A DNA stretch of 51,413 nucleotides from Candidatus Udaeobacter sp. (GTDB taxonomy: Bacteria; Verrucomicrobiota; Verrucomicrobiia; Chthoniobacterales; UBA10450). The DNA lies in contig JBARMF010000042.1 in NCBI GenBank assembly GCA_049802315.1, positions 1 to 51,413 of the forward strand. Direction: 5' to 3'. Positions 27,777 to 49,865 of the stretch are shown here, one piece after another; position 1 is the first letter of the stretch, and the number at the start of each line of letters is the position of its first letter. Both the position numbers and the translations under genes were made by a program. Under the pieces are notes generated by a model. The model was given only the letters and a program-made list of their open reading frames with translations, made no database searches and had not been told where the DNA came from.

Positions 27777-29612
27777 ATGAAAACGGTCTGGCGCGTATTT
27801 GCGTATCTAAAGCGATATCCCTGGTTGGCCGCGGGGACGCTCACGTGCGCGATCTTCGGCACCTTGATGGTGATTGTGTTTCCGAGTGTGACCAAATGGA
27901 TCATTGAGGACGTGGTGCGGGCGAATCGGCCGGACAAATTGCTGCCGCTGATTTTGCTGGCCGCGGTCGCTTTTATTGTTCAGCACCTTTTCAATTCGCT
28001 CCGAATCGTTCTGAACAACACATTCGAGCAGAAAGTCATTTTTGATCTGCGCAGCGACTTGTATTCGCACATTCAACTCCTTCCGTTGCGCTGGTTTGAT
28101 AATCGGGCGACGGGCGACCTGATGACGCGCGTGATCGAAGACGTGAACTCGGTCGAGCGCGTGTTGATCGACGGAATCGAGCAAGGCGTCGTCGCGGTTT
28201 TACAAATCGTGATCGTAATGGCGGTGATGTTTTATTGGAACGCAAAGCTCGCATTGCTTGCGCTGGTGCCGCTGCCGCTGCTGATCGCGGGCGCGCTCGC
28301 TTACACGCTAACGGCGCACCGGCGGTATCGATTACAGCGGCGCGCTGCGTCGAATATCAACGCGCTGTTGCACGACAATCTTGCCGGTGTTCGTCAGATC
28401 AAAAGCTTCGCGCGCGAACGCGAGGAACACGCGCGTTTCAATCGCGCCAGCGATCAACTGCGGCATGCCACGCTGGTGGTGATGCGGACATGGGCGATTT
28501 ACTCGCCATCGATGTCGATGTTCGAAGCAATCGGCGCGTTGCTCGTGCTGGGATTTGGTAGTCACGACGTTTTGACCGGCAGCCTGCAACTCGGAGATCT
28601 GGTCGGAATCCTGATGCTCATGGCATTTCTTTACGATCCCATCAGCCGGTTGCATCAGTTGAATCAATTGGTGCAGGCCGGCCGTGCAGCGGGCGAACGT
28701 GTGTTTGAGATTCTCGACGAAGACGCCGAGCCGGGAGTTGTAGCCGTGGTCGGTGACCCTGGGACCGCGGCCGACGGCCGCGGCTACAGTGGACGCGTCA
28801 TCGGCGACATTCGCTACGACGATGTGAGCTTCAGTTACGTCGACGGGTTATCTGCGCTTCGGCACATTTCTTTTCACGCACCACCGGGCACCACGACTGC
28901 GCTCGTCGGCGCGACTGGCGCGGGAAAATCGACGCTGGTGAATTTGCTCGTGCGCTTTTACGAGTTCGACTCGGGCCAGATTTATGTCGATGACAAACCC
29001 GTTCGAGAGTACGACCTGCGCACTTTACGCGAAGGCGTCGGAGTCGTGACGCAGGAAAGCTTCCTTTTCAACGGATCGATTCGCGAAAATCTTTTGATGG
29101 GCAAACCAACGGCCAGTGACGCGGAACTATGGCGCGCGGTGGATGCCGCGAATGCGCGACAATTCATCGAGCGTTTGCCACAAGGATTGGAGAGCGTGGT
29201 TGGCGAGCGCGGCGTGAAATTGAGCGTGGGCGAGAAACAGCGGCTCTCAATTGCACGGGCGCTGCTCAAGGATCCGCCCATTTTGATTCTCGATGAAGCA
29301 ACAGCCAGCGTGGACACGGCGACAGAACGCTTAATCCAAGAGGCGCTGGAACATTTGATGGCGAATCGGACGTCGATTGTGATTGCACACCGCCTTTCGA
29401 CAATCGTCGGTGCGGACCAGATCCTGGTGTTGGATCACGGCCGCATCGTCGAGCGCGGCACCCACGCCGAATTGCTGGTGCTCGATCAAAAATACGCGCA
29501 GTTATGCCGTCAGAGTCTGTTAGAATCGTCGCCTCAGCGCGAAGCAGAGTCTGACGAGGAAATTGTCACCTCAGAAGTTGCGGAACCGGAAGAACAACGA
29601 TTGTCGGTCTAA
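27777..29612 (+). CDS. ABC exporter, fused permease/ATPase (MsbA/ABCB-like)
   Basis: 611 aa with six N-terminal TM helices. Walker A is GATGAGKST, the signature is LSVGEKQR, and Walker B is ILILDEATS. It carries an in-frame palindromic insert in the TMD-NBD linker. Confidence 0.9.
   Translation: MKTVWRVFAYLKRYPWLAAGTLTCAIFGTLMVIVFPSVTKWIIEDVVRANRPDKLLPLILLAAVAFIVQHLFNSLRIVLNNTFEQKVIFDLRSDLYSHIQLLPLRWFDNRATGDLMTRVIEDVNSVERVLIDGIEQGVVAVLQIVIVMAVMFYWNAKLALLALVPLPLLIAGALAYTLTAHRRYRLQRRAASNINALLHDNLAGVRQIKSFAREREEHARFNRASDQLRHATLVVMRTWAIYSPSMSMFEAIGALLVLGFGSHDVLTGSLQLGDLVGILMLMAFLYDPISRLHQLNQLVQAGRAAGERVFEILDEDAEPGVVAVVGDPGTAADGRGYSGRVIGDIRYDDVSFSYVDGLSALRHISFHAPPGTTTALVGATGAGKSTLVNLLVRFYEFDSGQIYVDDKPVREYDLRTLREGVGVVTQESFLFNGSIRENLLMGKPTASDAELWRAVDAANARQFIERLPQGLESVVGERGVKLSVGEKQRLSIARALLKDPPILILDEATASVDTATERLIQEALEHLMANRTSIVIAHRLSTIVGADQILVLDHGRIVERGTHAELLVLDQKYAQLCRQSLLESSPQREAESDEEIVTSEVAEPEEQRLSV
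28739..28788. repeat. palindromic element (tgtagccg...cggctaca family) inside the ABC exporter coding sequence
   Basis: An 8-bp outer inverted repeat (tgtagccg / cggctaca) encloses the 9-bp palindrome ccgcggccg-a-cggccgcgg. It is translated as VVAVVGDPGTAADGRGYS. The same outer clamp occurs at 49784-49865. Confidence 0.75.
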
Positions 29613-47200: not shown

Positions 47201-48160
47201 CTATCCAGACGAAGCTGCGATGTCGAGAACTTCACGCGCGCAGCCCCAGGAGAGGGTGAAACCGGCGCCGCCGTGACCGTAATTGTGAATGACAGCGCGA
47301 CCGTCGGCGAGACGATCGCGTTCGAGGCGCACGCCTGATTTTCGGAATGGACGCAGGCCGACGCGTTCGGCGAGAAGGCGCGGTTCGTTAATGTTCAGCA
47401 CACGGCTGCATTCTCCGACAATTCGTTGTGTCGTTGCGGGATCCGCCGCCAAGTTATCGCTGAGATCGTTGGTTCCACCGAAGACGCAATCGTTCGCGCG
47501 GGGGATTGCGTACATGAGCGGCGCGTCATCACATACAATCGCGCAGGAGAGACCCTCGATTTTCGGTACTATCGCCACCTGTCCGCGATGCGGTTCGAGA
47601 TCGGCATCAAGCATAAGCTCGCGCGCCCCGATTCCTGCGCAATTGATCACAATGTCGAATTTGGCATCGACATCTTCGAGCTTTTCGAAACGTACGTTCG
47701 CACGGATTTCGCCGTCAGCCTTGTGAAAGCGCGCGGTGAGGTAATCGAGATAAATCGTAGTGTCCATCAGCGGGACGCGCAGTGAGAAACCGCTTTTGAA
47801 TGACTCGCGAGATCCCTCGACTTCGCTCGGGATGACAGAAGCGCCCAGCGGAATCGCCCAATCTGGAATTTCAATCTCACCGGTCCGCAAAAACTGCCGC
47901 GATTCGATGATCGAAACACCGCTTTTGTGAAAGCGGGCGAGATCGAGGAGCACTTGGTAGGTTTCGAGCGCCAATGGGATTACTCTTTCGGCTGGCTCGA
48001 CATGGTACGGAAACCAAACCGCCGCAGCCACGCTGGAGGTTGTTTGCTGTCCGATGTCCTTTGCGAAGATAGCAGTGCGGTAACCGTGCTCCGCAAACAC
48101 GACACCGCACGTCAGTCCCGATACGCCCGCGCCAACGATTGCGACTGGTTCTGCCGACAT
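47201..48160 (-). CDS. FAD-dependent D-amino-acid oxidase-like oxidoreductase
   Basis: 319 aa. VAIVGAGVSGLTCG is the dinucleotide-binding motif, and the C-terminal HNYGHGGAGFTLSWGCA is typical of DAAO. It contains an in-frame repeat insert. Confidence 0.85.
   Translation of the reverse strand: MSAEPVAIVGAGVSGLTCGVVFAEHGYRTAIFAKDIGQQTTSSVAAAVWFPYHVEPAERVIPLALETYQVLLDLARFHKSGVSIIESRQFLRTGEIEIPDWAIPLGASVIPSEVEGSRESFKSGFSLRVPLMDTTIYLDYLTARFHKADGEIRANVRFEKLEDVDAKFDIVINCAGIGARELMLDADLEPHRGQVAIVPKIEGLSCAIVCDDAPLMYAIPRANDCVFGGTNDLSDNLAADPATTQRIVGECSRVLNINEPRLLAERVGLRPFRKSGVRLERDRLADGRAVIHNYGHGGAGFTLSWGCAREVLDIAASSG
47809..47837. repeat. short hairpin repeat, copy 2, inside the DAO coding sequence (gagaTCCCtcgacttcgctcGGGAtgaca)
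   Basis: Differs from copy 1 (286-314) at exactly two positions, and both differences preserve the stem (attcc/ggaat versus atccc/gggat). Translated in frame as VIPSEVEGSR. Confidence 0.75.
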
Positions 48161-49783: not shown

Positions 49784-49865
49784 CTGTAGCCGCGTCTCTG
49801 TAAGACGCGATAGCCGTCCTGGTTTACCTGCCACGATTACGCCTCGCACAGCGAGGCGGCTACAG
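49784..49865. repeat. clamped palindromic element (ctgtagccgc...gcggctacag)
   Basis: A 10-bp outer inverted repeat encloses two inner hairpins: gcgtct-ctgta-agacgc and cgcctcgc-aca-gcgaggcg. It has the same clamp as the element inside the ABC exporter gene. Confidence 0.7.

Follow-up and report, generated by a model that had tools for sequence, protein, structure and literature searches.

Repetitive extragenic palindromic (REP) sequences are non-autonomous palindromic DNA, thought to be mobilised as single-stranded hairpins by REP-associated tyrosine transposases (RAYTs) of the HUH/Y1 type. The GTAG and CGTC superfamilies of REPs and the RAYT 'REPtrons' were described by Di Nocera, De Gregorio and Rocco (2013; PMC3733652), and intragenic GTAG REPs were published in that work, most numerous in the verrucomicrobium Opitutus terrae and argued to be neutral inserts located in linkers (PMC3733652). 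Rickettsia palindromic elements (RPE), the classic parallel, are selfish and lie in frame in many unrelated housekeeping genes, to which they add surface loops (PMC10969869). We analyzed a window of 51,413 nucleotides (nt) from Candidatus Udaeobacter sp. (contig JBARMF010000042.1, C42 among our contigs) of a metagenome-assembled genome (MAG; G000; 3.15 Mb, 589 contigs, 54.9% G+C, 86% complete), in which a 50-nt palindromic element (28739..28788) is translated as part of the linker between the transmembrane domain (TMD) and the nucleotide-binding domain (NBD) of an MsbA-like ATP-binding cassette (ABC) exporter. By its sequence the element is classified as a compact REP doublet forming a hairpin (REPIN), a GTAG-headed REP dimer of RAYT-type from a Udaeobacter-specific family that we call type A. 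Because elements of this kind have already been published (PMC3733652), it joins the known class of intragenic GTAG REPs.

The type-A element shares with the REPs of PMC3733652 the GTAG head and 6-9 bp stem, the tight tail-to-tail dimers 1-2 bp apart, the location within open reading frames (ORFs) of known proteins, where ~20-30 amino acids (aa) are encoded and presumed neutral in linkers or loops, and the REP-flanked RAYT genes in the same genome. It differs in its host genus, Ca. Udaeobacter, and in its consensus; moreover, an empty ancestral site is shown here, at least six families replace one another at one site, and there is no family-wide depletion from coding DNA. With the REPIN/RAYT (TnpA-REP) systems of Pseudomonas and E. 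coli it shares the inverted doublet, the long hairpin and a lineage-specific distribution, and several RAYTs of its genome are flanked by REPs cognate to them. Classical REPINs, however, are extragenic by definition and usually have one RAYT per family, whereas about half of the type-A copies in this genome are translated and it has six or more RAYTs. In-frame insertion in unrelated protein-coding genes is common to the type-A element and the RPE, but the latter are ~100-150 bp long, carry a CGTC tag (RPE-4, RPE-6) or an unrelated one, have no associated RAYT and inhabit an obligate intracellular alphaproteobacterium (PMC3733652, PMC10969869); the exporter element is 50 nt long, has a GTAG tag and has no sequence similarity to RPE families. 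A literature search returned nothing specific on Udaeobacter repeats. To the known class the locus adds orthologue comparisons that point to a landing-pad site, and it adds a family without coding avoidance.

The element consists of two 24-nt units separated by a 2-nt spacer and arranged tail to tail with their heads outward (TGTAGCCGTGGTCGGTGACCCTGG-GA-CCGCGGCCGACGGCCGCGGCTACA). TGTAG opens each unit, from 28739 on the plus strand and from 28788 on the minus strand, and the head is followed by a short palindrome within the 20-40 nt range of REPs. As RNA, the inverted doublet would form one long hairpin (-30.3 kcal/mol; z = -2.65 for the plus strand and z = -3.2 for the minus strand). The type-A consensus is TGTAGCCGGGGGCGTTGACCCCGG, with the unit layout TGTAGCC-GGGG-(G/T)CGNTGA-CCCC-GG. 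The left unit (28739..28762, plus strand; TGTAGCCGTGGTCGGTGACCCTGG) has four mismatches to this consensus and is read as VAxxGDPG in its sole open forward frame; its hairpin has decayed: two of the nine pairs are broken and, among the seven that remain, one is G-U. The right unit (28765..28788, minus strand; TGTAGCCGCGGCCGTCGGCCGCGG) has five mismatches and is read as ADGRGY. Its stem is a perfect 9 bp, and at two pairs both bases differ from those in orthologous alleles. Since each half matches the family beyond chance, the element is more than a chance palindrome. Unlike REPs and REPINs in the strict sense, which are extragenic, it lies inside a 611-aa ORF. The peptide encoded in frame is VVAVVGDPGTAADGRGYS, or (V)VAVVGDPGTAADGRGY(S) with the neighbouring residues, and it follows the ...RVFEILDED helix and precedes the GDIRYDDVSFSY strand.

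The initial annotation had proposed an outer 8-bp clamp, a near-perfect 9-bp inner palindrome and translation in frame within an MsbA-like TMD-NBD linker. The clamp is present (TGTAGCCG/CGGCTACA), and the reading frame was confirmed by the ORF at 27777..29612 and by Pfam domains. The inner palindrome is also present, at 28765-28783 (CCGCGGCCG-A-CGGCCGCGG), although it is in fact perfect over 9+9 bp rather than near-perfect. No promoter-like or terminator-like site was found in the element region. Rfam matches at the element, to P10 (18.6 bits, short of the gathering score, 37) and to a microRNA model, were all sub-threshold and were rejected. The weak match to the Pseudomonas small RNA P10 spans 28723-28809 on the minus strand and probably reflects mere resemblance to a REP-like hairpin. 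A miniature inverted-repeat transposable element derived from an insertion sequence was also considered and rejected, as the terminal inverted repeat consists of the GTAG heads themselves and no direct repeats flank the element.

The host ORF (27777..29612, plus strand) encodes a 611-aa half-transporter with an ABC_membrane domain at residues 22-288 and an ABC_tran domain at residues 361-510. All ATPase motifs are intact and are conserved across orthologues. The protein scored 452 bits against TIGR02203 (cut-off 602) and 365 against NF008381 (cut-off 867), the MsbA equivalogs, and fell below every NCBIfam equivalog cut-off. It is thus best annotated from its domains as an MsbA-like type IV ABC exporter, and not as MsbA at equivalog level. 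The linker codons (28719..28802, plus strand) specify residues 315-342, that is, 28 aa between ...EILD and GDIRY, where the ancestral length is 17 aa. When ABCB19 from the PDB was aligned to the exporter, nine gap positions opened at the linker. An AlphaFold2 model built from a 19-orthologue alignment was too poor for the linker (mean predicted local distance difference test score of 52, predicted template modeling score of 0.40) and was not used.

Comparison with orthologues revealed an empty ancestral site. Nineteen same-genus exporters were aligned and linkers were then taken from 96 orthologues. Outside this segment the proteins are 78-95% identical and free of internal indels. Between EILD and GDIRY, 28 sequences have 17 aa (e.g., EPIEPGWIDNYTPVRVA) and six have 18 aa, with no palindromic DNA, and this 17-18 aa class takes in every distant Chthoniobacterales lineage among the 96 orthologues. 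The expectation that the linker would be shorter in typical relatives was therefore borne out, by ~11 residues: 28 aa here compared with 17 aa in distant orthologues and 16 aa in the genome's own paralogue. Orthologues free of the palindrome do not encode the same linker in other DNA; theirs is different and shorter. In a gene tree built on the flanking 1.65 kb of the exporter gene, filled linkers were restricted to the crown Udaeobacter clade. With filled states found in the crown clade only and short linkers in the distant orthologues, the direction of change is gain. One exporter (L094) has an independent, full-length type-A REPIN on an ancestral-type background, and the site is empty in its sister (L076), with 100% branch support. 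The tree requires at least seven changes in presence or absence and at least 29 in element type. The initial annotation described a repeat element fixed inside a coding sequence; insertion into the coding sequence is supported, but the element is fixed only in a relative sense, as the site is empty or is occupied by a single unit or by other families among exporters that are 87-95% identical.

The linker site in Udaeobacter holds at least six palindromic families among the 96 orthologues, each time in frame. Type-A dimers (TGTAGCCGGGG...) give linkers of 28 aa (L001, L002, and L003), and single or decayed type-A units give linkers of 20-21 aa (L015 and L014). Type C (CTGTAGGGGAACC.../...GCTTCCCCTACAG) is found in 43-aa linkers (L004, L020, L029, L033, and L037), the TTTGGAGTGCG...CGCACTCCAAA element in linkers of 24-30 aa (L007, L016, L062, L067, and L040), and the GTAGGGCGTCTG... 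element in linkers of 41-48 aa (L047, L048, and L068). The GTAGCGCAGAC... element accounts for one linker of 49 aa (L051), and the GEGERIEVRGF/PSPYPLPL element for the longest linkers, of 70-77 aa (L063, L073, and L100). The type-A allele of the window (L001) is nested among type-C carriers on the gene tree. Type-C alleles retain ~19 nt resembling the left type-A unit, and one allele (L050) holds both type A and type C; newer elements thus seem to land on older ones. The site may be a hotspot owing to targeting of GTAG hairpins, to a scarcity of permissive sites or to recombination. The TTTGGAGTGCG...CGCACTCCAAA element occurs at four separate places on the tree, and the linker alleles (L001-L108) are mosaic, a pattern that suggests repeated insertion or recombination of alleles between species. 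The element of ~170-190 nt (...GEGERIEVRGF...PSPYPLPL.GRGE...) that occupies the exporter linker in L063, L073, and L100 also occurs in an mnmA loop (L127 and L129).

The exporter element belongs to a dispersed family. A genome-wide search for the clamp, which the initial annotation had called for, detected 27 elements (TGTAGCCG...CGGCTACA pairs) that fall into two subfamilies, types A and B. Type-A matches numbered 34, 39, and 47 at no more than three, four, and five mismatches, respectively, compared with 0, 0, and 0-1 when the genome was shuffled. As MAG assemblies break at repeats, all copy numbers are minimum values. Type A was present in all 25 of the Udaeobacter genomes sampled, with 3-86 copies each and none for the reversed-pattern control, but among 16 genomes of other Chthoniobacterales families just two had any. 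Compact type-A dimers with spacers of 1-8 nt recur among the relatives. A generic scan for GTAG followed by any hairpin returned 1610 matches vs. 1935 in shuffles, with only particular head classes enriched, and the clamp 10-mer alone was not above chance in the window (four matches at no more than one mismatch vs. 2.4 expected). Type-B units have the form TGTAGCCGC-TTCGC-TGTG-CGAAGCG, for example. The 82-nt intergenic element at 49784..49865, which had been said to carry the same clamp, is indeed bounded by CTGTAGCCGC/GCGGCTACAG; only the TGTAGCCGC head is common to the two elements, however, and its hairpins are those of the sister subfamily, which makes it a type-B REPIN by sequence (fold of -42.4 kcal/mol, z = -5.6).

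Type-A copies are not confined to the exporter. Genes were called with our own crude caller (2953 genes, 85.6% coding), and a copy was scored as interior if a gene of 200 aa or more, called with confidence, contained it at a good distance from either end. By this definition, 18 of 34 type-A copies were interior to strong genes, as were 55% of random 24-mers. Interior copies numbered 1 of 28 for B1, 0 of 14 for B2, 1 of 13 for B3, 3 of 51 for GTAGGGCG (type E), 0 of 16 for type C, 10 of 136 for GTCATTCCGAGCGAAG..., and 37 of 155 for GTAGGGAC (type H). Type A, unlike its mostly intergenic sister families, shows no coding avoidance. The proteins that host type A include PurL, TreS, MnmA, a family-B polymerase, an E2 acyltransferase, MutL, a MurQ-like protein, an MFS transporter, a histidine kinase, an HD protein, and CobW, and their Pfam domains span the repeat or stand on both sides of it. 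The forward unit is always read as VAGxxDPG because two of its three frames contain stops; reverse units yield PGSTPPAT or GVxxPGY. The mnmA gene parallels the exporter: the loop is short in outgroups and the occupants of the same site in relatives differ by family, comprising type-A dimers, single units, the GEGER element and another GTAG palindrome. In the mnmA of one species, a compact 50-nt dimer is nested within older remnants.

The initial annotation had suggested testing whether insertions in coding sequences are enriched for lengths divisible by three. The test as posed was uninformative, since the 50-nt exporter element is not a multiple of three, produced a net gain of 33 nt and left the original eight codons unrecognizable. 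All in-gene type-A dimers (7/7) have lengths of 1 or 2 modulo 3 (50, 71, 76, 79, 82, 82, and 88 nt). Five of six intergenic or partly overlapping type-A dimers were divisible by three (69, 69, 78, 78, and 81 nt), the exception being 79 nt. The pattern arises from which reverse frame gets read, and the reverse-unit frame RGQRPRL was never used in genes. It was noticed post hoc in small numbers and is not counted as support.

The genome encodes RAYT transposases. Fifteen matches to PF01797 (Y1_Tnp) were detected, and six RAYT loci scored above the cut-off of NCBIfam NF047646 (REP-associated tyrosine transposase). Several RAYTs are in the canonical arrangement, with inverted cognate REPs on both sides (C171, C107, C51, C292, and C167). 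The C171 RAYT is flanked by inverted TGTAGCGGCGGTCTATGACCGCCG, which has the head and TC..TGAC loop of type A and differs from it in three compensated stem pairs and two loop letters. The C107 RAYT is flanked by TGTAGGGGAAGCTGACAGCTTCCC (type C), the occupant of the exporter linker in sister species. REPINs of the form GTAGGGACGCC... flank the C51 and C292 RAYTs, and GGTAGCGCACGCG... flanks that of C167.

Some RAYT domains lie in stop-free frames of housekeeping genes: recG (C167:1-2136, plus strand; 712 aa, with a cognate REP on each side), alaS (C120:984-4400, minus strand; 1139 aa), carB (C265:538-4647, minus strand; 1370 aa, read by eye only), and rarA (C461:1933-3789, plus strand; 619 aa). 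Pfam analysis showed host domains split around Y1_Tnp in alaS and rarA and a DEAD domain shortened at the insertion in recG. Like the exporter element, these cassettes of the same genome are intragenic and translated; they are ~600-750 nt long and autonomous-looking, whereas the exporter element is a 50-nt non-autonomous dimer. A literature search found no paper on in-frame RAYT cassettes in housekeeping genes. The alaS cassette is common to three species (G000, G017, and G010); elsewhere in the genus a loop of 37-99 aa takes its place. RAYT homologues of relatives are likewise found in open frames of ~900-1600 aa. A back-to-back GTAGGGCG REPIN is also translated in alaS (C120:3482-3527; ...PTVGRLCETPAADTAALQ...), ~450 nt from the RAYT cassette, so that one essential gene holds two separate palindromic insertions.

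The element in the exporter is probably a selfish REPIN, likely mobilized by a RAYT and filtered by selection: the frame had to be kept and the peptide, in a flexible linker, had to be benign. A type-A copy would have landed between the extension of the last transmembrane helix and the first NBD strand. It would have survived because the frame was kept (+33 nt, +11 aa), because the forward unit lay in its only stop-free frame, and because a peptide rich in Gly, Pro, Asp, and Ala fell in a flexible linker. It would be a tolerated selfish insertion with no required function, presumably transcribed and translated together with the exporter, and its left arm appears to be decaying in this genome. 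The explanation draws on the family membership of the element, its in-frame intragenic position, the empty ancestral state, the turnover at the site, and the RAYTs with cognate REPs. We infer that the type-A element is moved by RAYTs and that its insertion is neutral for the transporter.

Type-A REPs may also be more than accidental survivors. They could be part of a coding-adapted guild derived from HUH transposons, made up of 8-codon units that encode benign Gly/Pro/Asp loops and of stop-less REP-RAYT-REP cassettes in alaS, recG, carB, and rarA, with a preference for existing GTAG hairpins. We put this forward tentatively and think it rather less likely than not to be correct. If true, a few protein loops would be permanent landing pads, and loop length would vary rapidly in proteins of a very abundant soil genus.

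Several observations weigh against the interpretation of the exporter element as a tolerated selfish insertion. None of the RAYTs found in the 86%-complete, 589-contig assembly has exact type-A REPs at its flanks. No target-site duplication was seen around the exporter element, and no clean boundary between filled and empty states was found where it was sought (L094 vs. L076, and the mnmA alleles), because ~16-24 nt of older sequence was replaced every time. In the exporter linker ~24 nt of ancestral sequence is gone, and the net gain for a 50-nt element is 33 nt (+11 aa). With apparent replacement instead of simple insertion, the ends of the element and its target are undefined. Finally, pairing has been kept. 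Among 11 orthologous type-A linker alleles, 87% of the hairpin positions pair and five pairs were changed on both sides vs. 2.2 in shuffles, with a covariation score reached by 1 of 500 shuffles, so that the structure could be maintained by some function.

Such a function might be exerted by the hairpin as nucleic acid, for example as a ribosome-pausing mRNA structure between the TMD and NBD, as a site for an RNase or gyrase, or as a recombination or landing site. The perfect 9-bp right stem with its two compensated pairs and the stability of the predicted fold on both strands are consistent with such a role. However, many healthy orthologues have an empty site, and in others it is filled by unrelated elements that differ in size and sequence; the left arm is decaying here, and the element has no terminator, promoter or Rfam family. 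Moreover, stem covariation is general across the family's copies in the genome, so re-seeding or conversion explains it, and relatedness inflates the shuffle control, which means that the covariation is not proof of function. The state of the hairpin fits re-seeding from other copies or weak maintenance of structure, and we judge a retained nucleic-acid role to be improbable.

The lack of a target-site duplication and of a clean boundary, and the apparent replacement of ~24 nt of the ancestral linker, would also be expected if the element had arisen locally, by template switching, hairpin-templated mutation or gene conversion from a REP elsewhere, and not by transposition. But both arms match the 24-nt consensus of a dispersed family, a match never met by chance, and the identical dimer architecture is found at many loci and in many genomes. 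Cognate RAYTs are present. Conversion requires flanking homology, which an empty site would not have had. A local origin is therefore very unlikely. Equally slim is the chance that the 11 extra residues lengthen the linker adaptively, the repeat having been co-opted to adjust TMD-NBD coupling or to bind a partner: retention in frame in many species and the recognizable VAGxGDPG...GYS peptide would fit, but linker peptide and length vary freely (17-77 aa, six unrelated element families), close relatives differ, and the same peptide motifs occur in dozens of unrelated proteins.

If the element is a tolerated selfish REPIN, the essential genes of a soil bacterium that is free-living and dominant worldwide can harbour REP-type selfish DNA, which is not limited to intergenic spacers or to Rickettsia. 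In the exporter linker the element type changed at least 29 times across 96 species, which makes the linker a natural experiment on tolerance of loop insertions and on REP-on-REP targeting. Gene callers and orthology pipelines will take such insertions for hypervariable linkers, and MAG assemblies are fragmented by the repeats. The value of the locus rests on the detailed comparison and on its connection with RAYT cassettes read in frame; it establishes no new principle.

The most abundant repeat of the genome is GTCATTCCGAGCGAAGTCGAGGAATC (~136 copies), of which 10 of 136 are gene-interior and 109 of 136 are intergenic. Two copies lie in the window, at 286-315 and 47811-47838, the latter within a D-amino-acid oxidase ORF.

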